Positions 20,368 through 52,343 are shown, counted from the first letter of the stretch. The stretch is DNA of 64,000 nucleotides from Thermoanaerobaculia bacterium (GCA_963816185.1 CAWFJJ010000025.1:552794-616793); one strand, 5' to 3'. A program made the numbers and translations. Notes: a model not told the origin generated them from the sequence alone.

Positions 20368-21378
20368 TCAGCGAACGACGCGCGTCGCGGCGCGCGAGAG
20401 CCGGTCCATGATCGTCCGGCCGAGTCCGCGCCGGGGAACCGCGAGAACCAGCAGCTCGCTTCCGCGGCGCCGCGTGCGCAGCGCGGCGAACAGCGCGCGC
20501 GCAATCTCCTCGGGAGAAGAGCCGAGGGAAAGAAATCTTTGCTTCGGAAAGAGAAGAGAAAGACGCGCGGGGCCGAGCACGAGCGCGTTGGGATGCGATG
20601 ACGCATGGGAAATCAGAGAAGATTTTCTTAGAAAGAGAATGAGGGGACGGCTCGGAGCGTAGTGGACGTACCGCGTGCCGGGACTCTGCGCGGCGCGCCT
20701 CTTCACCTTCGAAGAAAGAGCGCCGCCGCCCATTGCGGGGCGCCCGCTCGAAGCGGCAAACCGAAGCCCGGGAATCATCTTTCTAAGAAGATCCCCAGGT
20801 ATCGCCCCTTCCCGCAGGATCCTCGGCGGGTCCAGCGCGACGACGGTGGACTCGACGCCGTGCTTTGTCGATCCGCCATCCAGGACGAAGACGTCCGGGA
20901 AGTCATCTGCAACGTGCCGCGCCGTCGTGGGGCTCGGGCGGCCCGAGACATTCGCGCTCGGCGCGGCGATCGGCACGCCCGCGAGGCGCACGAGATCGCG
21001 CGCGACGCCCTGCGGCATCCGGACGGCAACCGTGTCGAGGCCGGCGGTGACCGAAGAGGGGACCGAAGATTTCTTAGAAAGTATGAGAGTCAGGGGGCCG
21101 GGCCAGAATCGCGCGAGCAGCGCCTTCGCACGGGGCGGAGGCGCCTCTGCCACCTTTCTGAGCATCCTCATGTCGCTCACGTGAACGATCACCGGGTTGT
21201 CTTGGGGCCGGCCCTTCGCCTCGAAGATCCTCGCGACTGCTTTCGCGTCCAGCGCGTTCGCGCCGAGGCCGTAAACCGTCTCCGTCGGGAACGCGACGAG
21301 CTCGCCCCGGCGCAGCCGTGCGGCCGCCGTGCGCAGAGAGCGGGCGCTGACGGGATGGACGTTCTTCGAGCGCGTCAC
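20368..21378 (-). CDS. sua5: L-threonylcarbamoyladenylate synthase (Sua5/TsaC2)
   Basis: VAFPTETVYGLGA, KGRPQDNP, WPGPLT, AAPSANVSG, GVESTV and a C-terminal SUA5 domain (SPG..HYAP). Confidence 0.95.
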   Translation of the reverse strand: MTRSKNVHPVSARSLRTAAARLRRGELVAFPTETVYGLGANALDAKAVARIFEAKGRPQDNPVIVHVSDMRMLRKVAEAPPPRAKALLARFWPGPLTLILSKKSSVPSSVTAGLDTVAVRMPQGVARDLVRLAGVPIAAPSANVSGRPSPTTARHVADDFPDVFVLDGGSTKHGVESTVVALDPPRILREGAIPGDLLRKMIPGLRFAASSGRPAMGGGALSSKVKRRAAQSPGTRYVHYAPSRPLILFLRKSSLISHASSHPNALVLGPARLSLLFPKQRFLSLGSSPEEIARALFAALRTRRRGSELLVLAVPRRGLGRTIMDRLSRAATRVVR

Positions 21379-21436
21379 GCGCGCATCTTAGCGGCGGCCA
21401 TCGCGCTCGCGCGGAGTACACTTCCAAAGCAAGGTC

Positions 21437-22507
21437 GTGCGAGAAAAGAGCAGGTTGGGGTTGCTGTGGCGCCGGGTTCGCGCTCCGCGGTCGAACGGTG
21501 ACGAGGAGGAGCGCATCGGCAAACAGAACGCGGAGCTTCTCGGGGCCCTCCAGAAGTGTCCGGACTCCATCATCGCGACCGACGCGAAAGGTCTGGTGAC
21601 CATGTTCAACGCCGGGGCCGAGGAGCTGTTCGGCTACCGACCCTCGGAGGTCGTCGGCTTCTCGGCGGCGCGCTTCTATCCGACCCGCGAGGTCGCCAAG
21701 GGGATCATGATGGCGTTGCGGGAGGCCCCCGGCGGTCGCCTGCGAAACATCGAGGTCACGGTCCGCCGGAAAGACGGCCTGGACATCCCCGCGTTGATCT
21801 CGCTGACGCTCATCCGAAATGACCGCGGGGAGCAGGCCGGCACGGTCGGCTTCGTCAAGGATCTGATCTCCCAGAAGCAGGCGGAGCGGAAGCAGCAACA
21901 GGAGCTGGAGTACCTCGAGCGGAAGCTGAGCGAGATCATGGAGGTCTCCGAGGCCATGGCGCTCGGAGATTTCACACGCGAGGTCCGGGTCGAGCGCGAC
22001 GACGTCATCGGGAAGCTGGCCGCTTCCTTCAACCAGACGGCGCGGTCCCTCGGAGAGCTCGTGGCCCAGATCCAACGCACGGCCGAACGCATCGTCCGGG
22101 CCACCTCGCTGCAGGCGGAGGGCGCGGGCGGGGAGGAGCGGGTGATGGCGGCGGCCGTCGCCTCGATGAACGGCATCTCCCGGGCGTCGACGCAGATCAC
22201 CGAGATCACGGCGGTCATTGATCGGATCGCGCACCAGACGAATCTGTTGGCCCTCAACGCGGCCATCGAGGCGGCCCGGGCGGGGGAGCAAGGCCGCGGG
22301 TTTGCCGTGGTGGCGCTCGAGGTGCGAAAGCTTGCCGAACGCTCGGCCGAGGCGGCTAAGGAGATCAGGGAGCTCATCCAGGACTCGGTGCAGAAGGTCC
22401 ACGACGGCTGCGAACACGTGGATCTGGCCAGCCGGCTGGTGGGCGAGCAGGCCGACGAGCTGGGACGGATCGTGGGGCGCTTCCAGGTGGCGGGAAAGGG
22501 AGGTTAG
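21437..22507 (+). CDS. Soluble PAS-HAMP methyl-accepting chemotaxis-like protein
   Basis: PAS ([16 protein letters not shown]), HAMP ([13 protein letters not shown]), MCP hairpin [30 protein letters not shown]. No TM segments. Confidence 0.88.
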
Positions 22508-22555
22508 GGCGGCCCGGACGCCGGCCAAATGTCGTTCAGCTTGCCTGAAACGTAG

Positions 22556-23809
22556 CTACCGCATCGCCTCCATGGGCGAGAGGCGCGAGGCGCGGATCGC
22601 GGGATAGAGGCCGAACGTGAGCGCGAGGCTGAGGGCGACGATCCACGCCGTCATGAGCCCGAAGGGGTTGACGACGAGCCCCCACGGGAACATGGGCGAG
22701 AGCGCGCGGCAGACGATCGATCCGGCGACCGTGCCGACCGAGGCTCCGAGCGCGGCGAGCACGGCGGCCTCCAGGAGGAACTGGACGAAGATCTCGTGAT
22801 CGGACGCGCCGAGCGACTTGCGCAACCCGATCTCGTAGCGCCGGTCCGAGAACGAGATCAGCATGACCGAGAGGACGCCCACGCCGCCCACGAGGAGGAC
22901 GGTCGCGGCAAGGGAAAGGAGGACGATCCTCCAGCCCCTCATCTCGTCGAGGAAGCGCGCGTACGAGCGGGCGGCCTCGGTATCGAGGTCCTGGATCTCC
23001 ACGTCCTCGATCCCGTGGTGGGCCTGGCGAACGCGTCCCAGGAGAGCCGCGGAGATGTCGGCCAGGTCGTCCTTGTCCCGCAGCTTGACGGCGACCTGCG
23101 TGAGGGCGTGCGTCGTGTCGATGCGGTCCATGTAGGTCTCGAGGGGGATCTGGAAGCCGTTTGCGTCGTACCAGATCTCGTCGTTGAAGATCTGCATCGG
23201 AGCCTGGAGCCCCACGACGCGGAACGGGACGCCCTCGAGGACGACGTCGCGCCCGATGGGATCGGCGCCTCCGAAGAGCTTCGAGGCGAGGGTCGAGCCC
23301 ACGACCGCCACCGTGCTGCGGCGCTTCTGGTCGTCCGCGGTGAGGCCCCGTCCCGAGGCGATCTGCCGGTTCATGAAGAGCGCGTAGTCGTGCGTCACGC
23401 CGGTGACGGAGCACCGCTCCATGCCCGAAAGGGAGCGAACGGATGTGCGCTTCATGGCGCGAGGCAGGAAGGCGAGCACCTTGGGGTTCGCGAGCGTGAT
23501 CCGGGCGAGGTCCTCGTACCTCAGTCCCGGCGACATCGCGAAGCGCTTCTGCTCCTCCGAGGTCTGGGCCACCTTCGGGACGATGACGGCGGTACCGTCC
23601 CAGCTCATCCCCGAGAAGCCCGTCGCGACCTTGTCGAGGACCCCGTCCAGCACCGACGTCATGACGACGAGCGCGAAGACGCCGAGCATGAGGAGCGTGA
23701 GCGTGAGGATCGAGCGCAGCTTGTGGGCCCAGAGCTCGATCAGGCCGCCCGTGACGATCTCCCAGATCAGGGCGAGCCGGGCTCCGAGCGAGAGGGAGCC
23801 GCTACTCAT
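22556..23809 (-). CDS. ABC transporter permease (MacB/FtsX family)
   Basis: HKLRSILT, GGVGVLSVML, EIGLRKSLGA, FGLYPAIRASRLSP. Confidence 0.92.
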   Translation of the reverse strand: MSSGSLSLGARLALIWEIVTGGLIELWAHKLRSILTLTLLMLGVFALVVMTSVLDGVLDKVATGFSGMSWDGTAVIVPKVAQTSEEQKRFAMSPGLRYEDLARITLANPKVLAFLPRAMKRTSVRSLSGMERCSVTGVTHDYALFMNRQIASGRGLTADDQKRRSTVAVVGSTLASKLFGGADPIGRDVVLEGVPFRVVGLQAPMQIFNDEIWYDANGFQIPLETYMDRIDTTHALTQVAVKLRDKDDLADISAALLGRVRQAHHGIEDVEIQDLDTEAARSYARFLDEMRGWRIVLLSLAATVLLVGGVGVLSVMLISFSDRRYEIGLRKSLGASDHEIFVQFLLEAAVLAALGASVGTVAGSIVCRALSPMFPWGLVVNPFGLMTAWIVALSLALTFGLYPAIRASRLSPMEAMR

Positions 23810-25055
23810 ACCGAAGCGCTTCCATCGGGGAGAGGCGGCTGGCCTTCCACGCCGGATAGATCGCGAAGAGGAAGCCGAAGACGAGGGCCAGGAGGAAGGC
23901 CCAGACGAAGCTCTTCGGGTCCATGTAGAGCGGGACCTCGAGGACGCTCGTGATCACCTTCGAGAACGCGACACCGATGAAGAAGCCGACGAACCCGCCG
24001 AGGCCCGTCAGGAGCAGCGCCTCGGTCATGAACTCCTTGAAGACCTCGCGGCCCGAGGCGCCGATCGCCATCTTGACGCCCACCTCGCGCACGCGCTCCT
24101 TGAGCGTCGCGAGCTGGATGTTCACGTTCACCATCCCGCCACCGACGAGCGACAGGATGCCGGAGAGCATGAAGATCAGGTTGTAGACCTGGCCCTGGCT
24201 GCGCCTTTTCCGGACGCGCTTGGCGATGTCGTCGATCCGGAAATCCTCCTGCTGGCGGTGGCTGGACTTCAGGACCGCCGAGAGCCTTTCGCTGAACTTC
24301 TCGATGACGTTGATATCGGGGATCTTGAAGACGACCCGATCCAGCCGGTGGTACGCGTCTCCCTGCATCCGCTCCGCGACGAGGGTCGCCGGCAGTGCGA
24401 CGAGCTTGTTCCGCCAGGCGAAGATGTTTCCCTGGCTGTCGCGGAACCGGAAGACCTTCTCCTTCAGGATGCCGATCACCGTCACCGGGATGTCGCCCAC
24501 GCGGACGACCTGGTTGAGCGCCTCGCCCGTCGGGAAGAAGACGCTCACGGCCTCGTAGCCGAGCACGCACACCGGCGCGGCGGTCTCGACGTCGCGGGAC
24601 GAGAAGAGCCGGCCCTTGTCCAGCGTGTACCCGTTCACGGCGAGATAGTCGGCCGCGACGCCGGTGATCTGGCGGTCCTGATCGGCGAACGGCGACCGCA
24701 CGCGCGCCCGCGCGAACTTCTGAACGCTGACGCCCTGCACGGCTTTCATGTCGACCTTCTCGCCGCGCGAGGCGTCGTCCGCGCGCAGGCCGAGGTTCGC
24801 GTTCTGGAGCGCCGAGGGCTGCGTCCCGTCTTTGATGGCCTCCGACGGCTGGACGTTCAGCTTGTCGAACCCGCCGATCTTCGCGAACAGCTCGTCGGAG
24901 CGGCGCCGCTGGCTGTCCGAGATGGAGAAGCCGCCCAGGACCGACGCTACGCCGAGCATGACCCCGAGCGCCTGGAGGGTCGAGCGGCCGAAGTTCTCCC
25001 GGATCTCGACCCACGCGCTGAAGACGCGCTCGCGGAAGGCGCCGGTCGCGGCCAT
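23802..25055 (-). CDS. ABC transporter permease (MacB/FtsX family)
   Basis: ERVREVGVKMAIGA, YPAWKASRLSPMEALRYE. Confidence 0.92.
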   Translation of the reverse strand: MAATGAFRERVFSAWVEIRENFGRSTLQALGVMLGVASVLGGFSISDSQRRRSDELFAKIGGFDKLNVQPSEAIKDGTQPSALQNANLGLRADDASRGEKVDMKAVQGVSVQKFARARVRSPFADQDRQITGVAADYLAVNGYTLDKGRLFSSRDVETAAPVCVLGYEAVSVFFPTGEALNQVVRVGDIPVTVIGILKEKVFRFRDSQGNIFAWRNKLVALPATLVAERMQGDAYHRLDRVVFKIPDINVIEKFSERLSAVLKSSHRQQEDFRIDDIAKRVRKRRSQGQVYNLIFMLSGILSLVGGGMVNVNIQLATLKERVREVGVKMAIGASGREVFKEFMTEALLLTGLGGFVGFFIGVAFSKVITSVLEVPLYMDPKSFVWAFLLALVFGFLFAIYPAWKASRLSPMEALRYE

Positions 25056-25058
25056 GGC

Positions 25059-25748
25059 CTAGGCGGCGGCCGCTTCCGGCCCGAGGATCAGGCCGTCGCG
25101 CAGCTCGACCTTGCGCTCGGCCATCGCGGCGATGTGGGGATCGTGCGTGACGAGCATGACCGCGTTGCCCTGGCGGTGCAGCTCCTTGAACAGCTCGAGA
25201 ACCTCGGCCCCGGTCTTCGAATCGAGCGCGCCGGTAGGCTCGTCCGCGAGGAGGAGGGCAGGCCTGTTCGCGAGGGCCCGGGCGATGGCGACCCGCTGGC
25301 GCTGGCCGCCCGAGAGCTGCGCGGGGAGAACGTCGGCCTTCTCGGGAATTCCGACCTTCTCGAGCATCTCCATCGCGCGGCTGCGGCGCTCCTTGCGCGA
25401 GAGACCGGCATAGAGCAGCGGCAGCTCGACGTTGCGGAGGATCGAGGCCTTCGGCAGGAGGTTGTAGCTCTGGAAGACGAAGCCGACCTTCTCGTTGCGG
25501 ATTCGCGCGAGCGCGCCGCCCGACAGGCCCTCGACGGACTGGCCGTCGAGCGCGTAGCGGCCCGCGGTGGGGGAGTCGAGGCAGCCCAGGATGGCCATGA
25601 GCGTCGACTTCCCGGAGCCCGACGGCCCGATGAGGGCCACGAACTCGCCCTTCTCGACCACCATGTCGATCCCGCGCAGGGCGTGAACGGCGTTCCCGTT
25701 CGCACCGAAGACCTTCGTCAAGCCGGCTGTCTCAATGATCGTTGACAT
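25059..25748 (-). CDS. ABC transporter ATP-binding protein (MacB/LolD-like)
   Basis: GPSGSGKST, LSGGQRQRVAIARAL, LLADEPTGALD. Confidence 0.96.
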   Translation of the reverse strand: MSTIIETAGLTKVFGANGNAVHALRGIDMVVEKGEFVALIGPSGSGKSTLMAILGCLDSPTAGRYALDGQSVEGLSGGALARIRNEKVGFVFQSYNLLPKASILRNVELPLLYAGLSRKERRSRAMEMLEKVGIPEKADVLPAQLSGGQRQRVAIARALANRPALLLADEPTGALDSKTGAEVLELFKELHRQGNAVMLVTHDPHIAAMAERKVELRDGLILGPEAAAA

Positions 25749-25878
25749 CGTGTTTTTGGTTGGCTGGTCTTTCTTAGAAAGTGAATGCGGCCTTCCGTAC
25801 GCGTCGAGCTTGCCGTGTCAGGCCGCCGCGACCCGCCGCCTATTCATGTTCTAAGAAATCCCCTCTTCTCTCCGGTTC

Positions 25879-27099
25879 CTAGTTGTCGTCGTCTTTCTCT
25901 ACTTTTTTCTTCGTCGGATCCTCGAGGCAGACCTGATCGTTCGCCTTGAGGCCCGTCAGGATCTCCGCCCGCTCGAGCGTCGCGACGCCCGCCTGCACCG
26001 GAACGACATCGAAGTAATCCTTCCAGTGGTCCGAGAGCCAGATGAACTTGGCGCGGCCGGCGAGCCCCTCGCGGGCGTCCGCGAGCTGCTTCGGCTTGAG
26101 GTTGTCCTTGAGGCGGTACACGACCGTCTTTCCCTCGCGACGCTGGAGCGCCTCGAGCGGAACGGATACGGCCTTCTCGCGCTTCTCCCCGAGGATCTCG
26201 ACGTTCGCGCTCATGCCCGTGCGGTAGGCGTCGCCGAGCTCGTCGAGCGAGACCTCGACCGGGAAGACCTTGATCTTGTCCTGCAGCTTCGCCGCGGGCG
26301 CGACGAACCGCACCTTGCCCGTGAAGTTCTTCTGCGGGTACGCGTCGAGCGTGATGCGCACGATCTGGCCGACCCTGACCTTCGCGATGTCGACCTCGTT
26401 GAGATTCACGCGGATGAGGAGCGTCTTGAGGTCCGCCACCGTGAAGAGGACCGTCCCCGCGTTGAACGAGGAGACGCCGGACGTCACCGTCTCGCCGAGC
26501 TCGACGCCCTTCGTGATCACGACGCCCGACATCGGGCTCGTCACGCGCGCGCGCTGCGTGACCGCGTCGCCGCCGATCGGGATGCCGTGCCCCTCGACGA
26601 TCTCGTAGCGCTGGCGCGCGGCCTTGAGGTTCTCGGCCGCGAGATCGCGCTTCGTGACGTAGTCCTTCAGCGTCTCGCCCCCGATGAGGCCGTCCTTGAA
26701 GAGCCGCTCTTGCGACCGGAGCTGCCGCTCGGCGTCCTTCAGGCCGACGTCGGCCTGCGTGACTCCGGCCCTCACGTCGGAGAGCGACTGCGCCTGCGTC
26801 ACGTCGGGCTCGACCTCGGCGAGGAGGTCGCCGGATTTCACGATGGCGCCGTCGCGGACCTTCAGGGCCACGACCCGCCCCGAGACGGCGGACTTGACGT
26901 CGACCTTCGTCTCGGGGTCGACGACGCCGACCTCGCGCACACTCACCTGGAGATCTTCGGTCTGCACCTTCCCGACCCGGAACGGCGACTGGTCGGCTCC
27001 CTTGGCCTTGTCCTTGCCGCGCGAGGCGAAGACGGCCCCTCCGCCCGCGAGCAGGATCACGCCAGCGGACGCCAGGATCCATTTGAGTTTCTTGGACAT
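25879..27099 (-). CDS. Periplasmic adaptor (MacA/HlyD-like membrane fusion protein)
   Basis: N-terminal TM, VKSAVSGRV, VTSPMSGVV, LNEVDIAKVRVGQ, RTGMSANV. Confidence 0.92.
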   Translation of the reverse strand: MSKKLKWILASAGVILLAGGGAVFASRGKDKAKGADQSPFRVGKVQTEDLQVSVREVGVVDPETKVDVKSAVSGRVVALKVRDGAIVKSGDLLAEVEPDVTQAQSLSDVRAGVTQADVGLKDAERQLRSQERLFKDGLIGGETLKDYVTKRDLAAENLKAARQRYEIVEGHGIPIGGDAVTQRARVTSPMSGVVITKGVELGETVTSGVSSFNAGTVLFTVADLKTLLIRVNLNEVDIAKVRVGQIVRITLDAYPQKNFTGKVRFVAPAAKLQDKIKVFPVEVSLDELGDAYRTGMSANVEILGEKREKAVSVPLEALQRREGKTVVYRLKDNLKPKQLADAREGLAGRAKFIWLSDHWKDYFDVVPVQAGVATLERAEILTGLKANDQVCLEDPTKKKVEKDDDN

Positions 27100-27174
27100 G
27101 CAGGACCTCTCGTCGGGATATACGGATGCGAGCGGCGAAAGTTCGCGAATTTCCCAGGCACCTACAATCCCCGG

Positions 27175-28017: not shown

Positions 28018-28050
28018 GGGAAGGACGAGGAGGATTTCTTAGAAGGGAAT

Positions 28051-29355
28051 ATGGGACCGGTTGAGATCGCGGAGCGCGCTCGAGTCGCCGCGAGGCGCCT
28101 CGCGTCACTGTCTTCCGAGACCAAGGATCTCGTCCTTCGAAGAGTCGCCGACGGGATCGATGCGGCGCGAGACGCGATCCTCGAGGCGAACCGCGTGGAC
28201 GTGCTCGAGGCCCGCACCACTTTCGAGGAAATCGCTCTCTCGCGTTCTCTCCTCGACCGCCTCGTCCTCGACGACACGAAGCTGGACGCGATGGCCGCGG
28301 GCGTCCGCGCCGTCGCCGCGCTCGCCGATCCTGTCGGGCGCGTGCTCTCGCGCACGCTGCTCGACGACGGCCTCGTTCTCGAGAAGGTGACGTGTCCTCT
28401 GGGCGTCCTCCTCGTCATCTTCGAGTCGCGTCCCGACGCGGTCGTGCAGATCGGCTCTTTGGCTTTCAAGTCGGGCAACGCGGCGATCCTCAAGGGCGGG
28501 CGGGAGTCCGCCCGGTCCACGGAGGCGCTGCTGGACGTGTTCACGAAGGTTCTCGCGGACTTCCCCGACATCCCCGAAGGCGCGCTCTCCTCCGTGGCCG
28601 GCCGGGCTGAAGTGGACGCGCTCCTCGCGCTCGACGAGTCCATCGACCTCGTGATCCCGCGGGGCGGCTACGAGCTCGTCAAGCACGTCCAGGCGCACAC
28701 GCGCATCCCGGTCCTCGGCCACACGGAGGGCGTCTGCCACGTCTACGTGGATCGCGCTGCGGACGAGAGGATGGCGACGGCGATCGTCCTCGACAGCAAG
28801 CTCCAGTACGCGGCGGCGTGCAACGCGATCGAGACGCTTCTCGTCCACCGAGAGGCCGCCAGTCGCTTTCTCGTTCCGCTGCTCGGTCGGCTCCTCGAGG
28901 CCGGCGTGGAGATCCGTGCCTGTGAGGAAACGCGAGCTCTCGCGCCGCCGCTCGTCCTCGCACCGGCCTCGGAGGAGGACTGGCGCATGGAGTACGGCGG
29001 CCCCGTACTCGCGGTGAGGATCGTGAATTCCCTGGACGAGGCGGTCGATCACGTCAACCGTTACGGCTCGCACCACACCGAGGCCATCGTCACCTCCGAC
29101 AAGACAGCCGCCGAGGCTTTCCTTTCCCGCGTGGACGCGGCGGGCGTCTTCCACAACGCCTCCACGCGCTTCGCCGACGGCTTTCGCTACGGCTTCGGGG
29201 CGGAGGTCGGAATCTCGACGAGCCGTATCCACGCCCGCGGTCCGGTCGGCCTCGACGGGCTCGTGACGTACAAATACGTCCTCAGGGGCAACGGCCAGAT
29301 CGTGTCGACGTACAGCGGGAAAGACGCCCGCCCGTTCCGGCATCAGCGGCTCTGA
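28051..29355 (+). CDS. proA: Gamma-glutamyl phosphate reductase
   Basis: IFESRPD, KSGNAAILKGG, CNAIETLL, YGSHHTEAI, NASTRFADG, HARGPVGL. Confidence 0.97.
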   Translation: MGPVEIAERARVAARRLASLSSETKDLVLRRVADGIDAARDAILEANRVDVLEARTTFEEIALSRSLLDRLVLDDTKLDAMAAGVRAVAALADPVGRVLSRTLLDDGLVLEKVTCPLGVLLVIFESRPDAVVQIGSLAFKSGNAAILKGGRESARSTEALLDVFTKVLADFPDIPEGALSSVAGRAEVDALLALDESIDLVIPRGGYELVKHVQAHTRIPVLGHTEGVCHVYVDRAADERMATAIVLDSKLQYAAACNAIETLLVHREAASRFLVPLLGRLLEAGVEIRACEETRALAPPLVLAPASEEDWRMEYGGPVLAVRIVNSLDEAVDHVNRYGSHHTEAIVTSDKTAAEAFLSRVDAAGVFHNASTRFADGFRYGFGAEVGISTSRIHARGPVGLDGLVTYKYVLRGNGQIVSTYSGKDARPFRHQRL

Positions 29356-29381
29356 AGGAGTGATCGGGAGCAGTCACTCGT

Positions 29382-29768: not shown

Positions 29769-29771
29769 CGC

Positions 29772-30005: not shown

Positions 30006-30083
30006 GGAACCTCCATGGACCAATCATCTTAGCTAACACATCAGAGCGGAGCAATCCGTGCGTTCTCGTTCTAACATCCCGAC

Positions 30084-31943
30084 GTGGCTCCGATCCGGGT
30101 CCTTCCCGACGCCCTCGTCGATCAGATCGCCGCGGGCGAGGTCGTGGAGCGCCCGGCGTCCGCCGTCAAGGAGCTCGTGGAGAACGCGCTCGATGCCGGC
30201 GCGCGGCGGGTCCGCGTGGACGTCGAAGGCGGGGGGATCGCGCGGATCGAGGTCGTGGACGACGGCTCCGGCATGTCTCCCACCGACGCGAACCTGGCTC
30301 TCGAACGGCATGCGACCTCCAAGATCCGCACGTTTCAGGACCTGACCTCGATCGGCACAATGGGTTTCCGCGGCGAGGCGCTGCCCTCGATCGCCTCCGT
30401 CTCGCGCCTCGTCCTCGCGACGTCGCCGGACGAGTCCGGCCTCGGGACCGAGGTCGTGGCCGAGCGGGGCGCGCCTCCGCGCGTGTCACCCGCTCCACAC
30501 CCGAAGGGCACGCGCGTCGTCGTCGAGGACCTCTTCGGTAACGTCCCGGCGCGCCGCAACTTCCTGAAGAGCGCCGAGGCCGAGCTCCGCGCGGTCGTGA
30601 AGGTCGTCACGACGCTGGCGCTTTCGCGGCCGGACGTCGCCTTTGCGCTCGGGGCGGGAAGCCGGCTTCTCCTGGATCTGCCTCCGGCACCTGGAATCGC
30701 GTCGCGGTTCCGAGAAGTCCTCGGGCTCGCGGCCCCGGCACCCCCACGCGACGTGGACTTCGCATTGAACGGCATGACGCTCACGGGCGCCGTGACGCGG
30801 CCCGACACGACGTTTCCGTCGCGGGCGCACCAATGGTTCTTCGTGAACGGCCGCGCGATCCGGGACGCGACCGTGGCGCACGCCGTCGCGCTCGCGACGC
30901 GCGAGGTGCTGCGATCGGACCGCCACGCGGGGTTCGCGCTGTTTCTCGGCTGCGCGCCGGAGCTCTGCGACGTGAACGTACACCCGCAGAAGCTGGAGGT
31001 TCGCTTCCGCGAGCCGAGCGCCGTGCACACGCTCGTCCACCGCGGCCTCGTCCACGCGCTCACGGGGGGGAAGGGCGCCGTGGCGGTCCGTGGAGATGCA
31101 TTCGAAGGTGAAAGAGGAAGACGAGGAAGAGAACGAGATTTCTTAGAAAGGGATATTGGTTGGCGGGGCGTGTCTGAGGTCGGCGAGGGGTTGGCTCGCT
31201 ATGGCGGCGGGGACGCGGGAGCCGGAACGCTACTCGACGCGCGAGCGGCCGGCGCGTCCCCTTCCTCATATCCGCAGAAAATCTCCTCTTCTCTTTCCCC
31301 CTCTTCTCATTCGGAAGAAATCTCCTCTTCGTCTTCTTCGCTTTCCTCTTCCCCTCTCGGCCCCATTCGCCTCCTCGGCCAGTACCGCGATTCGTTCCTC
31401 GTGGGCGAAGGCGAGGAAGGGCTCGTGCTCATCGACCAGCACGTGGCGCACGAGCGCGTGAGGTACGAGAGATTTCTCGAGAGGCTCGAGGCGTCGGAGG
31501 TCTCGTCGCAGAATCTCCTGGCGCCGGTGACGTTCGAGGCGACGCCTGACGAGGCGGCGCTCCTTTCGCGGTCGGACGACTTCCTCGCCGAAGCGGGCTT
31601 CGTCGTTTCGGAGCTCTCGGGCCGGACGTTTCTGATTTCCGCCACACCGCCTGAAATGCCGGCCTCCTCGATCCTCCCCGCGCTTCGTGACACCCTCGCG
31701 CGCCTCGCGGCGTTGCCCGAGGGAGCCGCGTCCTCGCCCGCGCTCAGGCGCGAGGTCCTCGCCGCGTCGCTTGCCTGCCGTGGCGCGATCACGGTGAACC
31801 ACCGCCTCGCGCCGGCGGAGGCCGTGCGGCTTCTCGCGGACCTCGCCGCCTGCCGTGACCCGTGGACGTGTCCGCACGGGCGCCCCATCCTCCTCGCGTT
31901 TCCGCATGAAGAGCTCGAGAGACGCTTCGGGCGGCGCGGATGA
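30084..31943 (+). CDS. mutL: DNA mismatch repair endonuclease MutL
   Basis: IAAGEVVERPASAVKELVENALDA, HATSKI, GFRGEALPSI, DVNVHPQK, DQHVAHERV, CPHGRP. Confidence 0.97.
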   Translation: MAPIRVLPDALVDQIAAGEVVERPASAVKELVENALDAGARRVRVDVEGGGIARIEVVDDGSGMSPTDANLALERHATSKIRTFQDLTSIGTMGFRGEALPSIASVSRLVLATSPDESGLGTEVVAERGAPPRVSPAPHPKGTRVVVEDLFGNVPARRNFLKSAEAELRAVVKVVTTLALSRPDVAFALGAGSRLLLDLPPAPGIASRFREVLGLAAPAPPRDVDFALNGMTLTGAVTRPDTTFPSRAHQWFFVNGRAIRDATVAHAVALATREVLRSDRHAGFALFLGCAPELCDVNVHPQKLEVRFREPSAVHTLVHRGLVHALTGGKGAVAVRGDAFEGERGRRGRERDFLERDIGWRGVSEVGEGLARYGGGDAGAGTLLDARAAGASPSSYPQKISSSLSPSSHSEEISSSSSSLSSSPLGPIRLLGQYRDSFLVGEGEEGLVLIDQHVAHERVRYERFLERLEASEVSSQNLLAPVTFEATPDEAALLSRSDDFLAEAGFVVSELSGRTFLISATPPEMPASSILPALRDTLARLAALPEGAASSPALRREVLAASLACRGAITVNHRLAPAEAVRLLADLAACRDPWTCPHGRPILLAFPHEELERRFGRRG

Positions 31944-32860: not shown

Positions 32861-32895
32861 GGCGGGATAGAATCCCGCCCCAAAGGCGCCACGTC

Positions 32896-34986: not shown

Positions 34987-35026
34987 GAAGGCGCACGCGG
35001 CAGCCGAAGGCCGCTAGAATCCTCTC

Positions 35027-35569: not shown

Positions 35570-35608
35570 CGTTGCGCAGTCGAAGCCGGGCCGGCATTTG
35601 CGCGGGGT

Positions 35609-37780: not shown

Positions 37781-37994
37781 TGGCTTTTGCGAGCTGCAGT
37801 CGCTGCGGGACACGTTGCAACCGCGGAACCATGAGGAATCTCAAGGGGATGCGGAGACTTCGTTGGAAACACGGCACTTAGCGCCCGCCTCAAAACTCGA
37901 AATGTGTCAGAGCCGTGGCGCACACGGTGTCAGACACAGCTCAGAGACAGCGGGGCAGGTCCGTCGTCAGGAGGAGCGAGCGGCGTGAGGCTCT

Positions 37995-38570: not shown

Positions 38571-38584
38571 CGTTTCACCTGTCG

Positions 38585-40002: not shown

Positions 40003-40020
40003 CGGTCCTCGAATCGGTGT

Positions 40021-40046
40021 AACGAGAAAGCGGCCGGATCGGTTCC
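40021..40046 (-). promoter_or_regulatory. Putative ECF autoregulatory promoter GGAACC-N16-CGTT
   Basis: Minus strand reads ggaacc gatccggccgctttct cgtt, ending 18 nt upstream of the sigma ATG. Confidence 0.6.
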
Positions 40047-40098
40047 GGCGCCGCTAAGTCTATAATCGCCAAGAGTTCCGAAGGAGAGCAGGAAGTCG

Positions 40099-40716
40099 AT
40101 GCGGAGTATTTCCGTCCGTTTTGGGCTTCTTTTGCTGCTGGCGTCGCGCCCAGCCGCGGCGCAGGACCAGCCTCCCCCCGCGCCCGTCGCCGCCCCGACG
40201 CCCGCTGCGGCCGCTCCCGCCCCCGCCACGACGGGTCCCGCCCCGGCCGCGGCGGCCGCCTCGCCGGCCTGGCGGCCTTTCCAGGAGCTCGCTTTTCTCG
40301 TCGGCTCGTGGTCGGGCAGCGCGGAGTCCGGCACGCGCGTCGGCGGGCGCGTCGCGCGCTTCACGCCGCAATTCAACGGGAATTACCTCGTCCACCGCGG
40401 AAGCACGATCCTCACGTCGGACGACGGCAAGGAGGAGACGATCGAGGAGGTGGGCTATTTCGCGTACGATCGGGAGAAGAGGAGGTACGTCGCCTCGTAT
40501 TTCTTTTCCACCGGTATCAGCGCCACGTTCGACGTCGTGATCGCGCCCGAGGGCGTGCGCCTCGCGTCGCGCGAGCTCCTGAACGCGGAGGCCGGGACGA
40601 AGGCGCGGATGCTTTTTTCGCCGAAGAGCGACGGCGAGCTCACTCTGTCGATGGATCTTGCGCCGGGAGGGAAGGATTTCGTGCCTTTCCTCACGAGCAG
40701 CCTTCGGAAGAAGTAG
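40099..40716 (+). CDS. Hypothetical exported protein
   Basis: Signal peptide, Pro/Ala linker, LAFLVGSWSG beta-barrel-like domain. TATAAT at 40061-40066. Confidence 0.75.
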   Translation: MRSISVRFGLLLLLASRPAAAQDQPPPAPVAAPTPAAAAPAPATTGPAPAAAAASPAWRPFQELAFLVGSWSGSAESGTRVGGRVARFTPQFNGNYLVHRGSTILTSDDGKEETIEEVGYFAYDREKRRYVASYFFSTGISATFDVVIAPEGVRLASRELLNAEAGTKARMLFSPKSDGELTLSMDLAPGGKDFVPFLTSSLRKK

Positions 40717-40802
40717 GGTTCATCGGAAAAACGGCGGTCTGGTAACCTGCAAGACCCGCGAGGCGGCCATTTTCGTGGCCCCGCGTTCCGAAAGCAGGCC
40801 TC

Positions 40803-42641
40803 ATGTCCGGACTTCGCAACATCGCGATCATCGCGCACGTCGACCATGGCAAGACCACGCTCGTGGACTGCCTCCTGAAGCAGTCGGGTACGTTCCGTGC
40901 GAACGAGGCGATGTCCGGCGCCGAGCGGATCATGGACAGCAACGACCTCGAGAGGGAGCGCGGGATCACGATCCTCGCGAAGAACACGTCCATCCACTAC
41001 CACGGCACGAAGATCAACATCGTCGACACGCCGGGCCACAGCGACTTCGGCGGCGAAGTGGAGCGCGTCCTCAAGATGGTGGACGCGGTGCTCCTCGTCG
41101 TGGACGCGGCCGAGGGCACGATGCCTCAGACGCGCTTCGTCCTGCGCAAGGCGTTCGAGCTGGGGCTGAAACCCCTCGTCGTCGTGAACAAGATCGACCG
41201 GCCGGACGCGCGGCCGCATCAGGTCATCGACGAGGTGTTCGACCTGATGGTCGACCTCGGCGCCACGGACGCGCAGCTCGACTTCCCGATCATCTACACG
41301 TCCGCCAAGCACGGCTTCGCGCGCCGCGAGGTGGACCACACGGAGACGGACGTGCGGCCGCTCCTCGACGCGATTCTCGTGGAGGTGCCGGAGCCCGGCG
41401 GAGACCCGGCCGCCCCGCTGCAGATCCTCGTGGCGTCGCTGGACTACGACAACTACCTCGGCCGGCTCCTCATCGGCCGCATCGTGAACGGGACGGCGAA
41501 GCCGGGGCAGCAGATCTCGGTCTGCAAGCTCGACGGCACCGTCACGAAGGCCAAAATCGCGATGCTGATGGCGTTCGAAGGGCTGAGACGCGTCGAGGTC
41601 GAGGAGGCTCACGCCGGCGACCTCGTCGTCATCTCCGGCATCGACGAGGTCACGATCGGCGAGACGCTGGCCGACCTGGAGAATCCCGTCGCCCTCGCGC
41701 CCATCGCCGTCGACGAGCCGACCGTCTCCATGACGTTCCGCGTGAACGACTCGCCGTTCGCCGGCCGGGAGGGCAAGTACGTCACGAGCCGAAACCTCGG
41801 CGAGCGCCTCCAGAAGGAGCTTCGCACGAACGTCGCGATGCGCGTCGAGGGCACGGACAGCCCCGACGCCTTCCGAGTCTCGGGCCGCGGCGAGCTGCAC
41901 CTCGCGATCACGGTCGAGATGATGCGCCGCGAGGGATACGAGTTCGCGCTCTCACGCCCCCAGGTCATCCTCAAGGAGGTCGACTCTCAGACGTGCGAGC
42001 CGATCGAGGAGCTCGTCGTCGACGTGCCGGAAGTCGCGATGGGCACCGTCATCGAGAAGCTCGGCCAGCGCAAGGCCGAGATGACGAACATGACGAATCA
42101 CGGCTCGGGACGCGTGAAGATCGAGTTCAAGATCCCGACGCGCGGCCTCTTCGGGTACCGCAACGAGTTCCTCACGGACACGAAGGGCGAGGGCCTCCTG
42201 TACCACGTCTTCCACGGCTACGAGCCGTTCAAGGGCGAGGTCACGGGCCGCGGGCGGGGCGCTCTCGTGTGCAAGGAGGCGGGAGAGACGACCGCGCACT
42301 CCCTCGAGCGGCTCGAGGAGCGTTCGACGCTCTTCCTGTCGCCCGGAGTCGAGGTCTACGGCGGGATGATCTGCGGCGAGAGTGCGCGGGAGAACGACCT
42401 CGTCGTGAACCCCTGCGTCAAGAAGCACCTCACGAACATGCGTTCGTCCAACTCGGACTTCGCGATCCGCCTCACGCCTCCGCGGCCGATGCCTCTCGAG
42501 CTCGCCATCGGGTGGATCGAGGACGACGAGCTCGTCGAGGTGACGCCGAAGTCCGTGAGGCTGAGAAAGCGCATCCTCGACCATACCCAGCGGCGCGTCT
42601 CCGAGAAGAGGAGCGCGGTCGTGGAAGAGGAGGAGGCGTGA
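40803..42641 (+). CDS. typA: Translational GTPase TypA/BipA
   Basis: [63 protein letters not shown]. Confidence 0.97.
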
Positions 42642-43300
42642 GCGCTCGCCGGGCGGTTGCCGCAGTCTGCCTGCTTCTCGCGCGGCCTCTCGTCGCCGAC
42701 GGGGGCCGTGCCGCGGAGGTCGCCGCCTGGCTCACGGGCACGTTCGAGCTGAAGAGCGAGAGGTCGGACGGAGCGCCCGAGGCGGTCCGGGTCGTCGTCG
42801 TGGCCGTGCCGAGGAGCCGGATCGCGAACGGTTCTCTCGTCCTCTATCGCGAGCAGGCCGCCGCGCCGAAGCTCGACGAGCCGTCCCAGCAGCGTTTCTA
42901 CCGCCTCGAAGACGCCGGAGATACGGTCCGCATGCGCGCGTTCGACCCGAAGGACCCCATCGTCGTGCGCGGCAAATGGCGAGATCCTTCTGCTCTCGCT
43001 CTTTACGGCGCGAGCGACGTGCGCGAGAGGCCAGGCTGCACGCTGCTGCTCAAGAAAAAGGGCGACCTCTGGGAAGGCGAGACGCCGGGCACGGACTGCC
43101 CCTCGACCGTGAAGACCGCGGCGACGGTGAGGTCCGTCTTGATCCTCGCGCAGGACGGCTTCACCCAGTGGGACCGGGGATTCGACGAAAAGGGTCAGCA
43201 GACGTGGGAGTCCCCGGAAGGCGGCATGCGGTTCCTGAAGAGATCGATGAACGCGCCCGTGGACGAAAAGCTCATCGAGCGTCCGGTCGGGCGCCGCTGA
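42638..43300 (+). CDS. CpcT/CpeT-family (bilin lyase-like) exported protein
   Basis: GTGA overlap with typA. WLTGTF, LYREQA..P.QQRFYRL, RPGCT, C.S, WDRGFDEKGQQTW. Confidence 0.72.
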   Translation: MSARRAVAAVCLLLARPLVADGGRAAEVAAWLTGTFELKSERSDGAPEAVRVVVVAVPRSRIANGSLVLYREQAAAPKLDEPSQQRFYRLEDAGDTVRMRAFDPKDPIVVRGKWRDPSALALYGASDVRERPGCTLLLKKKGDLWEGETPGTDCPSTVKTAATVRSVLILAQDGFTQWDRGFDEKGQQTWESPEGGMRFLKRSMNAPVDEKLIERPVGRR

Positions 43301-43311
43301 AGTCGCGCCGT

Positions 43312-43674
43312 CTACTTCGGCTCGACGACGAGCGTTCCCGTCATGTCTTCGTGGCCGTCGCCGCAGAAGACGTCGCAGTGGAACGGGAACGTTCCCTCCT
43401 TGTCGGGCGTGAGCGCGACCCGCGTGACGTCCTTCGGGACGATGTCCTTCCGGATCTTGAACGCCGGGAGGTTGAAGCCGTGAACCCGATCCAATGACGT
43501 CAGTTCGAGAACGACGGCTTCACCTTTCTTGACGTGTACCTCGGCGGGCGTGAACGAGAACCTCTTCGCGGAGATCTTCACGACCCGCGGCTCGGCGCCG
43601 CGCCCGGCCGCCGCGGCGGCGAAGACGGCCAGAGCGAGTGCCGCGCGCCCCGCAAGGACGCTGCCGGACCGCAT
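43312..43674 (-). CDS. Exported cupredoxin (CuA/COX2-like domain)
   Basis: Signal peptide, DRVHGF, HCDVFCGDGHEDM (CuA-type ligands). Confidence 0.88.
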   Translation of the reverse strand: MRSGSVLAGRAALALAVFAAAAAGRGAEPRVVKISAKRFSFTPAEVHVKKGEAVVLELTSLDRVHGFNLPAFKIRKDIVPKDVTRVALTPDKEGTFPFHCDVFCGDGHEDMTGTLVVEPK

Positions 43675-43676
43675 GG

Positions 43677-44594
43677 TCAACCCACGGCCGCGGCAGGTGT
43701 CCGCACCCATGTCGCCTTGATCGCCTTCTGCTCGAGGCGATATACGCCCTTGCCCGGATAAGCTTCGACGTCGCGCCAGCCGAGGCCGCGATACGGCTGC
43801 TTGTCGTCCCACGGGACCGGAGCCCTCTTTGGGACCGAGCCGGGGGCCGGGAGCGGGAACATCAGAGACGTGGCGGAGTGGTGCTCGATGTGGCCCGTCT
43901 TGTGGTGGTGCTCCTGGTGGATGTGCCCGTAAAAGACGGTCACGTGCGGGAACGGCTGGAGGACCTCGAGCGCGGCGGCGCCGTCTTTCGTGGCCCAATC
44001 CCACGAGGGGTAAAGGTCGAAGAGCGGGCGGTGCGTGAGGATCACGATTGGCTTGTCGGCTTTCCGCTTCGCGAGGTCGCTCTTGAGCCATGCGAGCTGC
44101 GCCTCGCCGATCGCGGCACCCGGATCGGACACGTTGTCGAGGACGGCGAAGTGGACCCCCTTGTGGTCGAACGAATAATGCGTCTCCCCGAAGAGCTCGT
44201 GGTACGCCTCGCCGCGGTCGAGAGAGGCGTCGTGCTCGCCCGGCAGGAACCGCACCGTCTTGGCCTTCAGCTTCCCGGCGATGTCGCGGAACTCCTTCAT
44301 GCGGTCGCGCCGCTTCACGCCATCGTCCGTCGTGTGCGTGAGGTCGCCGGTGAAGACGACGAAATCGGGCTGCGCCGACAGCGCGTTCACGGCCTCGATC
44401 GCCTTCGGAAGCGTGCCTTTCGCATCCGGGTTCGGAGGGCCTTCGAAGCCCCAGTGCGTGTCCGAGAGCTGGACGAAGTGGAACTCGTCGGCGGGCTCGG
44501 CCAGCGCGGTTCGCCACAGGCTCGACGCGAAGACGACGCCGCCTCCGAGGCCGGCCAGCTTCAGGAACTCCCGTCGATCGGTTTCGGCTTTCAT
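43677..44594 (-). CDS. Tat-exported metallophosphoesterase (calcineurin-like)
   Basis: DRREFLK Tat motif, QLSDTH, TGDLTH, PGEHD, THRP, GHIHQ. Confidence 0.9.
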   Translation of the reverse strand: MKAETDRREFLKLAGLGGGVVFASSLWRTALAEPADEFHFVQLSDTHWGFEGPPNPDAKGTLPKAIEAVNALSAQPDFVVFTGDLTHTTDDGVKRRDRMKEFRDIAGKLKAKTVRFLPGEHDASLDRGEAYHELFGETHYSFDHKGVHFAVLDNVSDPGAAIGEAQLAWLKSDLAKRKADKPIVILTHRPLFDLYPSWDWATKDGAAALEVLQPFPHVTVFYGHIHQEHHHKTGHIEHHSATSLMFPLPAPGSVPKRAPVPWDDKQPYRGLGWRDVEAYPGKGVYRLEQKAIKATWVRTPAAAVG

Positions 44595-44614
44595 GGCGCC
44601 TTCCTCCGCCGAGG

Positions 44615-44677
44615 AGACCCGCGCGAGTAGCCGTCTATTCCCGGATGCCGGGAATAAGATGACCCCGCCCGCGGTCT
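44615..44677. promoter_or_regulatory. Back-to-back divergent ECF-type promoters GGAATA-N17-GTCT
   Basis: Minus strand 44641-44615 and plus strand 44651-44677, with identical spacing. The two -35 boxes form the inverted repeat tattcccgg-atg-ccgggaata. Confidence 0.72.
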
Positions 44678-44683
44678 GTGGAA

Positions 44684-45226
44684 ATGGAGGGTTCCCTGCG
44701 CGAACCGGAACCGGGGGCGGAATTCGAGGAGCTGATGCTGCCGCTTCTCCCATCCGCCTATAACCTCGCGCGCTGGCTCACGCGCAACGACCACGATGCA
44801 GAGGACGTGGTTCAGGAGGCATTTCTGCGGGCTTATCGGTTCTTCCCTTCGTTCCGCGGCGGCGACGCGCGGGCCTGGCTCCTCGCGATCGTGCGCAACG
44901 CTTGCTGGACGTGGCTTCGCACGAATCGCGCGCGCGAGGACGCGACGGCCCTCGAGGACGCCGAAGAGCCGGCGGACATCGTCGCTTCCGTCGAGGAGGA
45001 CCTCGTGCGGCGCGCCGATGGCGCACGGCTGAGGCGGGCGCTCGACGAGCTGCCTGGGGAATTCCGCGAAGTGATCGTGCTCCGCGAGCTCGAGGAGCTC
45101 TCGTACCGGGAGATCGCCGAGGTCGCGGGGGTCCCGGTGGGAACCGTGATGTCGCGCCTCGCGCGGGGGAGGCGGCGCCTCCAGTCGGCGCTCGCCCGGC
45201 CGGCCGCAGCCGAGGTGGCGCCATGA
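44684..45226 (+). CDS. ECF sigma factor
   Basis: AYNLARWLTRNDHDAEDVVQEAFLRA, WLLAIVRN, LRELEELSYREIA, GTVMSRLARGR. Confidence 0.94.
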   Translation: MEGSLREPEPGAEFEELMLPLLPSAYNLARWLTRNDHDAEDVVQEAFLRAYRFFPSFRGGDARAWLLAIVRNACWTWLRTNRAREDATALEDAEEPADIVASVEEDLVRRADGARLRRALDELPGEFREVIVLRELEELSYREIAEVAGVPVGTVMSRLARGRRRLQSALARPAAAEVAP

Positions 45227-45963
45227 CCTGTCCGTTTCCCCGCGAGAACGCCCACGCCTGGCTCGACGGAGAGCTCTCGGTCGAGGCGACTCTGGAAGCC
45301 GAGCGCCACGCCCGAGAGTGCGCCTCGTGCGCCGCGGAATACCGGCGTGCGCTCGCCCTGCGGTCGGCGCTCCGGGAGGGCGGGCTCGTCGCCGTTCCTC
45401 CGGCCTCCCTCGAGGCGCGCGTTCGTGCCCGCCTTGCGAAAGAGCGCAGGCCCTCGTGGCGGCGCGGCGTGCCGGAGTGGGCCGCACTCGCCGCAGCGCT
45501 CGTCCTCGGTGCCGCGCTCACGGCCCTCCTCATGCCGCTGCGCGAGTCGATCCGCGCCCGCGGCCTCGACGAGACCCTCGTCGACACCCATGTGCGCGCT
45601 CTCATGAAGGGGCCTCTCATCGAGGTCGTCTCGTCCGACCGTCACACGGTCAAGCCGTGGTTCGCCGGGCGCATCGACCTCTCGCCGAAAGTGAAAGACC
45701 TCGCGGACCGGGGCTTCCCGCTCTCCGGCGGACGGGTGGACGACCTTTCGGGGCGCCGGGTTGCCGCCCTCGCGTATACGCACGGGCGGCACGAGATCGA
45801 CCTCTTCGTCTGGGTCGCGGCGGCGCCCGCTCCGGCCGTGACCACGGCCGTTTTGCGCGGCTACCACGTCGCGCGCTGGACGGAAGGCGATCTCGCCTAC
45901 GCCGCCGTGTCCGACATGGACGAGGAGGAGCTGCGCACGTTCGTCGAGCTCATCCGCAACTGA
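45223..45963 (+). CDS. Zinc-binding transmembrane anti-sigma factor
   Basis: AWLDGEL, HARECASC, TM, SSDRHTVKPWFAG, GFPLSGGRVD. Confidence 0.9.
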   Translation: MTCPFPRENAHAWLDGELSVEATLEAERHARECASCAAEYRRALALRSALREGGLVAVPPASLEARVRARLAKERRPSWRRGVPEWAALAAALVLGAALTALLMPLRESIRARGLDETLVDTHVRALMKGPLIEVVSSDRHTVKPWFAGRIDLSPKVKDLADRGFPLSGGRVDDLSGRRVAALAYTHGRHEIDLFVWVAAAPAPAVTTAVLRGYHVARWTEGDLAYAAVSDMDEEELRTFVELIRN

Positions 45964-46150
45964 CCTCGAAAGAGGAAGGATTCTTTTCAAAAGGGGAAGA
46001 TGGGAAGAGAGAGATTCTTAGAAAGGGAAGAGGCGGCGGCGCGCAAATCTCAGCGGCGGCGCGGCTGAGAACAGGCGACCGCATCGGACAAGCCGCAGCC
46101 GCGGCTCGGGACCATTCGAAGAATCTTCATCGGCATGTCTAGAATGCAAC

Positions 46151-52332: not shown

Positions 52333-52343
52333 AGCGGCCCAAC

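Follow-up and report, generated by a model that had tools for sequence, protein, structure and literature searches.

A directional, AT-rich DNA word iterated through genes and spacers of a Thermoanaerobaculia lineage

The window analysed here, a 64,000-nucleotide stretch of a Thermoanaerobaculia bacterium genome (GCA_963816185.1, CAWFJJ010000025.1:552794–616793), contains eight copies of the nine-base word TTCTWAGAA, written into genes as well as spacers. Our tentative reading is a composite one: the word would be the core of an iterated duplex-DNA signal, restricted to one lineage, read by a putative binding protein and derived from a miniature inverted-repeat transposable element (MITE). Comparison of relatives shows that purifying selection or a conversion-type drive holds the 9-bp core, with the interiors between paired copies drifting. 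Copies are created by two routes, the insertion of ~130-bp pairs into spacers and the length-neutral overwriting of coding sequence.

Abundance and lineage range

A first-pass annotation of the window, made from the sequence alone, had placed the word at 20625, 20781 and 21071 (in sua5), 31140 (in mutL) and 25771, 25849, 28036 and 46015 (in spacers), and all eight copies lie there, three in sua5, one in mutL and four in spacers. It had also judged such a number foreign to chance; in 100 dinucleotide-preserving shuffles of the window, the mean was 0.03 copies and the maximum 1. Both orientations occur, the plus strand reading TTCTTAGAA in six copies and TTCTAAGAA in two, and the four in-gene copies are indeed translated in different frames (SKK, LLRK, FLRK and FLE). 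The purine-only tracts described around the word exist, mostly on one side of it and not on both, and the description as a simple palindrome has to be given up: the oriented profile of the flanks is asymmetric, making the motif directional. Degenerate copies extend the earlier list (TTCGAAGAA at 46115–46123, another near 45981, and decayed right halves in mutL at ~31273 and ~31308). No exact copy lies past 46023, in keeping with the reported absence from a cassette and insertion sequence (IS) region. Positions 50700–64000 of the window have a lower GC content (0.63–0.66) and no synteny with four congeners, consistent with an accessory region of that 'cassette/IS' kind.

The genome holding the window (G000) is a metagenome-assembled genome (MAG) of 5.09 Mb in 30 contigs, 94.9% complete with 3.4% contamination. 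It contains 337 copies of TTCTWAGAA (165 in one orientation and 172 in the other; 0.066 per kb) against ~5.6 expected from a third-order Markov model, so the proposal of a genome-wide signal holds and the word is not confined to the window. Called genes contain 128 copies, where 1.4 are expected when synonymous codons are resampled with proteins and codon usage held (maximum 4 in 40 replicates), and spacers contain 196 against 3.8 expected. The Markov and codon-aware comparisons that the annotation had called for thus give an excess of ~50- to 90-fold. Gene calls, weight-matrix thresholds and orthology anchors come from simple home-made scripts throughout, and genic and intergenic counts are approximate.

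One-letter variants are also present (TGCTTAGAA, 48 copies; CTCTTAGAA, 23; TTCTTTGAA, 60; TTCTTCGAA, 287, with 132 expected), and all three changes of the single C of the core have 0 copies against 0.8–2.7 expected. Degenerate cores are found in many long purine tracts apart from the exact copies, and the family is therefore larger than 337; an nhmmer profile of the half-element added only ~30 degenerate copies, being too insensitive. Several small contigs are 95–99.8% identical to large-contig stretches over 409 nt (C14 versus C24, C11 versus C1, C27 versus C25 and C10 versus C11), which suggests strain-variant or redundant assembly pieces, and a few of the 337 copies would therefore be counted twice. 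Between large contigs the density of copies varies by a factor of about five (75 in the 644 kb of C28; 11 in the 467 kb of C29). A-rich purine-only runs are themselves frequent in this 67%-GC genome, with 3,067 of length 12 or more versus ~1,240 naively expected; runs of 18 or more number 284, and of these only 68 have an exact core within 60 nt.

Counted across relatives as the 11-mer TTCTTAGAARG, the motif is present in 28/28 genomes of the same genus, at 50–329 copies per genome, and in 8/8 genomes of a sister genus of the same family, at 1–45 copies (controls 0–7) and with the same pair anatomy. Eight other genera of the family (27 genomes) have 0–2 copies and other families of the order (12 genomes) 0–1; the latter set includes two unpublished genomes, G019 and G024, and the pattern is independent of both. 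A one-genome-per-species scan found multiple matches in contigs titled Thermoanaerobaculia or Acidobacteriota MAGs, from different assemblers (NODE_, k141_ and contig_ names), and elsewhere single matches only, mostly in unrelated taxa. At least 115 viral contigs have one match each to a 15-mer, and none has several.

The feature is genuine and specific to the lineage, and it did not arise as an artefact. We give next to no credence to chance, biased composition or an artefact of assembly or sequencing, the last of which the annotation had kept in view as low-quality read regions: none of the 100 shuffles reached eight copies, the nulls are exceeded as above, the signal is in all 28 genus genomes, which were assembled independently, and in records from different assemblers, orthologous positions are kept and open reading frames (ORFs) run open through the motif. 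Literature on the core 9-mer yielded, among the matches listed, eukaryotic, viral or primer contexts and nothing relevant, and nothing relevant was found on Thermoanaerobaculia repeats, in agreement with the view that the motif is undescribed.

Anatomy of the half-element and the pair

Orienting copies by their central base before profiling the flanks defines a directional half-element of ~45 bp, an A-rich purine tract followed by ATT-TTCTTAGAA-GGTGAAKAGGG. The upstream ~20–25 nt are purine-rich (C plus T ~0.2–0.3), with GAAGAG and AGAAGA the commonest words. T stands before the core in 71% of copies, and G at +9 (65%) and +10 (92%) leads into K-G-A-A and a G-rich patch. Among adjacent copies closer than 3 kb, 69 of 118 are convergent, their arms, (A/T)T-TTCTTAGAA-GGKGAA..., facing each other; judged by weight matrix, a convergent partner lies within 250 nt of 214 of the 336 copies, and the other 122 have none. 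Pair spacing peaks at 74–78 bp (28 distinct elements), with a minor cluster at 151–156. The paired unit has inverted arms of ~20–25 bp and no coding capacity.

Pair interiors (~58 nt, ~75% GC) have no conserved column and do not fold more than expected (mean z 0.05; 23 elements). They are largely unique, 51 of 58 having no other match in the genome; the remaining seven have short 20–33-nt matches or, in three, a second, nested repeat family. Outer tracts within a pair are alike in composition only (within versus between pairs, p 0.12), and a long hairpin through the tracts was rejected on that comparison. The inner arms of a pair show a small similarity excess (p 0.002). Elements of the sister genus share the anatomy with unrelated interiors, and three copies in its low-copy genome G049 also differ from one another in this respect.

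Conservation at orthologous loci

Conservation at orthologous positions, another check proposed at the outset, was measured against 880 kb of one congener, G011, which offered anchors on either side for 73 G000 copies. The congener has the exact word at 38 of these sites, one mismatch at 15 and two at 1; 5 sites are diverged and 14 gapped. Where the site is present (59 cases), identity reaches 0.932 for the 9-mer, 0.74 for the proximal tract, 0.73 for the stretch just interior to the core, 0.63–0.64 for the interiors and 0.83–0.85 for the far, mostly coding, flanks. Exact retention of the 9-mer (38/59) compares with a neutral value of ~0.8^9 = 0.13, calculated by hand at ~0.8 per site; this expectation is roughly one lineage's retention because the G000 copies were chosen intact. 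Spacings of orthologous pairs are in some cases unchanged (76/76, 75/75) and in others have drifted (81/117, 126/86, 174/138), so that the 76-bp mode looks ancestral and not a rigid requirement. Whole pairs are gained or lost between species.

Three sites overwritten in sua5

The minus-strand ORF at 20368..21378 encodes Sua5 (Pfam Sua5_yciO_yrdC and Sua5_C; solved Sua5 structures at E 1.8e-73) and carries three half-elements. Site 1 (21040..21095, plus strand; core TTCTTAGAA at 21071–21079) lies in the YrdC domain and is read as LSKKSSVPSS. The copy at the end of the YrdC domain and the linker (20768..20812, minus strand; core TTCTAAGAA at 20781–20789; residues LLRKMIPG) is the convergent partner, 156 bp apart, of site 3 (20600..20645, plus strand), whose purine tract and core (TTCTTAGAA, 20625–20633) fall in the Sua5_C domain as FLRKSS. 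None of the three sites shows an indel relative to solved Sua5 (6f87, 9d3h) or to other genera.

Site 3 gives a before-and-after series. Outgroup genera read ...CTC TTC CGC CGC TCG CGC GCG GCC..., the motif-less sister-genus genomes G050 and G044 read CTC TTT CGC CGG AAG GCC GCC, and sister-genus G049 and five aligned genus genomes read CTC TTT CTA AGA AAA, followed by TCT TCT with no more than one C variant; G038 and G009 have GAA in place of AAA. Measured from the motif-less sister-genus genomes, 9 of 15 consecutive bases have changed, all toward the consensus and with no indel. The DNA of the site is identical, or nearly so, in 10/12 genus species, including the rare codons CTA, AGA, AAA and TCT, and third positions of the neighbouring codons vary freely. 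At site 1, equal in length in Pyrococcus Sua5 and outgroup genera, their LPKR..VPDAVT has become LSKKSSVPSSVT, again with no indel and including a serine switch from AGC to TCT; the Ser codon within this core differs among species, marking it as a weaker copy. Outgroup genera carry GC-ending codons at the 20781 site. In G000 the GC content at third codon positions (GC3) of the gene is down to 0.78, from 0.90–0.98 in other genera. That selection acts on the DNA and not on the protein, as the first-pass annotation had suggested, is borne out by the codon-aware null, by the frozen synonymous sites at site 3 and by the 93% identity of the 9-mer versus 63% for interiors.

Because nine of 15 bases changed without an indel, serine switched from AGC to TCT, three sites share one gene and GC3 dropped from ~0.95 to 0.78, we considered whether the lineage runs an active, templated short-patch overwriting that would install a ~15–45-bp signal in chromosomal sequence unrelated to it without change of length, essential genes included. 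We regard this as doubtful at best. The template would be the dispersed copies (conversion) or single-stranded DNA or RNA, possibly coupled to uptake; if true, such overwriting would be a molecular drive distinct from transposition and from point mutation plus uptake bias.

Block insertion of a complete pair

Between an ABC-ATPase gene and its upstream gene, both on the minus strand, lies a complete inverted pair, a 131-bp block at 25750..25880 with cores at 25771–25779 (plus) and 25849–25857 (minus), 78 bp apart. The site is empty in 9/10 aligned relatives, the flanking genes abutting, and filled only in G000 and G038; the flank matches are 7–25 nt apart in most of the genomes listed. Contigs from related soil populations show the empty joint 25749/25881, and one spans the filled form. 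Between G000 and G038, the cores are kept at 9/9 and 8/9 positions and the interiors have diverged. No target-site duplication was found at the junctions (filled form versus nine empty relatives; one insertion at base level). Other pairs scored as absent look like internal deletions sparing the outer tracts. Contigs of related populations also show skips at 31052/31335 and 20717/20837, which may derive from other species; this contig set is mixed, and its RNA-library members carry no end or strand information.

Placement relative to genes and strand

Copies are enriched 4.5-fold in spacers (0.164 per kb, against 0.036 per kb in genes). At least 38 units nevertheless stand in frame within ORFs that stay open and coding to either side (10/58 pairs, 28/122 singles). 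Genic copies use all four stop-free frames, those avoiding the built-in TAG or TAA: 36 FLE, 33 (F/L/I)LR(K/R), 43 SKK and 16 (L/F)LR(N/K). Orientation follows neither transcription nor GC skew, with singles in co-directional spacers 19 same versus 19 opposite, paired copies 37 versus 41, and orientation splits of 123/126 and 42/46 with respect to skew.

Gene context of the spacers has a modest effect. Of 195 spacer copies, 63 lie between two plus-strand genes (34.6% of spacer length), 53 between two minus-strand genes (24.1%), 61 between divergent genes (25.5%) and 18 between convergent genes (15.8%; chi-square by hand ~9 on 3 d.f., p ~0.03), a modest excess at promoter-bearing spacers and a deficit at terminator-only ones. 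An in-frame start of a coding ORF falls within 15 nt of 35/337 copies, and a start within 40 nt of 19/122 singles and 29/214 paired copies. A test for depletion near compositionally atypical genes came out opposite to depletion, and is confounded by the lower coding score of the elements themselves.

A candidate DNA-level signal and its rivals

We take the element to be a feature of duplex DNA because neither orientation nor frame shows any strand logic. Its core, a palindrome of 9 bp in which each strand has one C, would be the site of a sequence-specific, probably dimeric, candidate DNA-binding protein. The pair form and its sharply peaked length suggest that the family descends from a miniature inverted-repeat element: it would have begun as such, its interiors drifting to a GC-rich neutral composition and its end sequence being kept, and copied to new places, because the putative protein reads it. 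Chromosome structuring, regulation or recombination are possible purposes. An AT-rich word and A-rich tracts persist here against GC drift, so selection or a conversion-type drive is needed. The copy-number spread and patch-like overwriting lean toward drive, and the promoter-side bias and palindromic core toward a binding site; selection for a protein site and a drive linked to uptake or conversion are not separable with the present data.

Several points weigh against this composite reading. No candidate reader protein was identified, and the roughly six-fold range of copy number within the genus is easier to see in a drive or mobile element than in an indispensable host function. Nor is there an evident reason why a single 1-kb gene should be crowded with three sites. 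The transposon origin is conjectural, with no target duplication at the one clean insertion and no autonomous element bearing such ends, and the drift of orthologous spacings (81 to 117, 174 to 138) leaves cooperative binding at a fixed distance unsupported. The counts that separate genes from spacers also rest on approximate, home-made gene calls.

Two rivals account for parts of the same evidence. A drive by uptake or recombination, in which the machinery favours DNA bearing the half-element, alleles with the motif displace those lacking it and the word accumulates by substitution where tolerated, is unlikely but deserves serious weight. It would fit the length-neutral creation of the Sua5 sites by many substitutions toward consensus, orthologous conservation above neutral, the use of both orientations and all stop-free frames, a lineage-specific and widely variable copy number, and a sharp core with compositional flanks. 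G000 has ComEC, DprA and a ComEA-like gene, which favours the uptake sequence raised by the annotation, although competence genes are widespread in bacteria and prove nothing. Known DNA uptake sequences occur at about one per kb and are frequent as terminator pairs; the density here, 0.066 per kb, is far lower, convergent spacers are depleted and divergent ones slightly enriched, and uptake predicts neither the palindromic core, nor the preferred pair spacing, nor three sites within 450 bp. According to a preprint, the cyanobacterial highly iterated palindrome HIP1 raises transformation efficiency in a cyanobacterium, a further point for uptake. The other rival, a purely selfish MITE family moved in trans by an unassembled transposase that binds the core as its end, strikes us as improbable. 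The inverted arms of ~20–25 bp around a small non-coding unit, the sharp modal length, the presence or absence of whole pairs between species, lineage differences in copy number and the spacer enrichment all speak for it, and a second, younger repeat with a conserved interior, nested in or beside copies, shows that small mobile repeats are active here. Transposition, however, cannot hold an end sequence at a fixed locus, where the 9-mer keeps 93% identity against 63% for interiors, and the three Sua5 copies arose without change of length. The annotation's 'decayed miniature repeat' suits the inverted pairs and block insertions, and fails for the overwritten Sua5 sites and the conserved core. 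Most interiors match nothing else in the genome, which great age of the copies could explain, and the single insertion examined has no target duplication. A TA-target transposon model was rejected, its predicted empty target TTCTTAAGAA having 0 copies. ORFs between convergent pairs 300–3,000 bp apart are ordinary by eye (no Pfam scan), with no transposase-like ORF among them. Contig ends do not lie in the element, and 2 lie within 1.5 kb of a copy; the MAG is incomplete, so absence of a transposase is unproven.

Readings at the level of RNA or of base modification fare worse. An RNA element, the pair serving as a hairpin for RNase III-type processing or termination, or the purine arm as a Shine–Dalgarno-like signal, is very unlikely. 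Pairing between the arms is built in, the forward arm is similar to the complement of the 3' end of 16S rRNA (...CACCTCCTTTCTAAGG) and some copies, such as that at 28036, stand 1–9 nt before a start codon. Against this, singles split 19/19 relative to transcription and in-gene copies run both ways, 122/336 copies are unpaired, interiors have no excess structure, and outer tracts are complementary by composition only. With starts within 15 nt of so few copies (35/337), a Shine–Dalgarno or start signal was rejected. A terminator was discarded on the depletion between convergent genes; terminator-like sites are at background (7 versus 6.6) and the intergenic pair has none. In 19–48 kb of the window, Rfam gave no match at E 0.1 or better. 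An origin from an rRNA processing stem was dropped, the 16S leader having no matching arm. The element's reverse arm (…ATTCACC-TTCTAAGAA-ATC…) is similar to the 16S 3' end and spacer start of G000 (…ATCACCTCCTTTCTAAGGGATC…, L001:3040–3075). Of slighter probability still is a HIP1-like palindrome kept by a cognate DNA methyltransferase and methylation-dependent short-patch mismatch repair. That the palindrome is short and has one cytosine on each strand would suit it, as would the lack of any copy with that C changed (0.8–2.7 expected). HIP1 is reported to be conserved within and between ORFs, as here (PMC5861425), and alternate HIPs are tied to matching methyltransferases (PMC4390886). The only C5 enzyme of G000, though, is split into two ORFs and was not found in 28 other genus genomes, and a C5-methylase link is unsupported; no Dam-type enzyme was found, and N6/N4 searches gave one weak partial match. 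Near-cognate repair would also not write a variable purine tract or insert 130-bp pairs. The split C5 gene (C5:226767–228047; L283:847–2127; ORFs of 278 and 145 aa) has ~68% identical copies in three genomes of other genera, and was probably acquired recently and is decaying.

Relation to known systems

DNA words found in genes and spacers alike at hundreds of loci include the HIP1 of cyanobacteria and uptake sequences in two families of proteobacteria, and their origin and function are debated; to our knowledge, such words are known from only a few lineages. The present motif would be of the HIP1, uptake-sequence or MITE kind, and it has the tested features of no known system in full, so we file it under none.

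For behaviour inside genes, HIP1 is the nearest analogue. PMC5861425 describes it as over-represented 15- to 300-fold and conserved within and between ORFs, with no peptide or RNA role and perhaps a nucleoid function, and PMC4390886 links alternate HIPs to cognate methyltransferases. The two are alike in being short palindromes far above expectation, in genes and spacers, with selection on DNA proposed and function open. HIP1 (GCGATCGC) is GC-rich and reaches more than one copy per gene, whereas the present motif, in a GC-rich genome, is AT-rich and occurs at ~0.07 per kb. Unlike HIP1, it also has a directional flank (purine tract, GG), inverted pairs of modal length and block insertion, and C5, Dam and N6/N4 searches found no lineage-wide methyltransferase to go with it.

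The DNA uptake sequences (DUS) of Neisseriaceae and uptake signal sequences (USS) of Pasteurellaceae are similarly lineage-specific, with a sharp core, compositional flanks and both orientations; they enter genes by substitution in tolerated frames, keep stable orthologous sites and often form inverted pairs. The motif shares the over-representation, the use of both orientations and the lineage specificity, and lacks the high density and the use as terminator pairs (0.066 per kb; 18/195 copies between convergent genes; interiors unfolded). Its core is palindromic, unlike theirs, and its pairs stand ~76 bp apart and are not tight terminator hairpins. Correia-type MITEs resemble it in their ~130-bp units, inverted ends of ~20–25 bp, preference for spacers near genes, presence or absence between relatives and hundreds of copies. 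The terminal inverted repeats around a short non-coding unit are found here too; in the tests run, a target-site duplication (one insertion), shared interiors and an autonomous partner were not, and lone arms and arms overprinted on coding sequence without insertion set the present family apart.

Rickettsia palindromic elements (RPEs) offer a likeness in their in-frame copies within genes, translated as surface or linker peptides, as in MutL here. They add residues and share their full-length sequence, whereas the Sua5 copies add none and only the arms are shared. Repetitive extragenic palindromic (REP) sequences and bacterial interspersed mosaic elements (BIMEs), associated with RAYT transposases, are likewise dispersed short repeats with inverted pairs, variable linkers and conserved orthologous spacers. 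Unlike them, the half-element is no hairpin (a 9-bp palindrome only), 128 copies are genic and no Y1 transposase was found in G000. A RAYT link was rejected: PF01797 has 0 matches in G000 and occurs in 2/18 genus genomes, against 8/12 motif-less genomes of other genera.

The word would thus be an independent case in uncultured soil Acidobacteriota, and a tractable one, with a cross-genus before-and-after series at Sua5 and with genomes in which the word is also seen to arrive by block insertion. Its abrupt taxonomic limit and the range of 1 to 329 copies invite phylogenetic profiling for a reader protein. The word is also a marker for binning and classifying the lineage, and its translated forms account for odd Ser-rich or Glu/Arg/Gly-rich low-complexity stretches in the proteins of the lineage.

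Further elements of the window and a second repeat

MutL (30084..31943) carries an in-frame element at 31101..31356, in the linker between DNA_mis_repair (aa 223–326) and MutL_C (aa 431–575). A purine tract with the exact core (31140–31148, read as FLE) is followed by decayed right halves at ~31273–31284 and ~31308–31322 and then by pyrimidine tracts, and the translation is Glu/Arg/Gly-rich from the purine arm and Ser-rich from the pyrimidine arm. Of 15 genus orthologues, 8 have this core unchanged, and the left half is absent from G013. The linker is longer than in four outgroup genomes, whose linkers are without the element.

A single half-element on the plus strand (28018..28050) fills the 33 nt that separate an amino-acid-kinase (ProB-like) ORF from an aldehyde-dehydrogenase-family (ProA-like) ORF; its core, at 28036–28044, is followed by GGGAAT and an ATG at 28051. 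This element is exact in G011 and degenerate in G003. Its purine tract (28018–28035) differs in length between species by 11–21 nt, as a microsatellite might. The spacer element at 45964..46130 begins after the stop codon at 45961–45963 and comprises a degenerate copy (45981–45994), the exact plus-strand core (46015–46023) and, at 46115–46123, the decayed convergent TTCGAAGAA; G038 and G003 have shorter, degenerate versions of the locus.

Outside the window, G000 contains a second dispersed repeat of ~150 nt with two hairpins (C25:104848–105242 and nine other loci, L287–L296). Arms of the first hairpin end in CGATGTCAAGGG, exactly 43 nt apart, with 29 arm copies and 0 in a reversed control; the other hairpin is GC-rich. 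Copies are 85–98% alike and often nested in or beside TTCTTAGAA pairs, and this family is younger than those pairs. The one-letter variant TGCTTAGAA is also found beside it.

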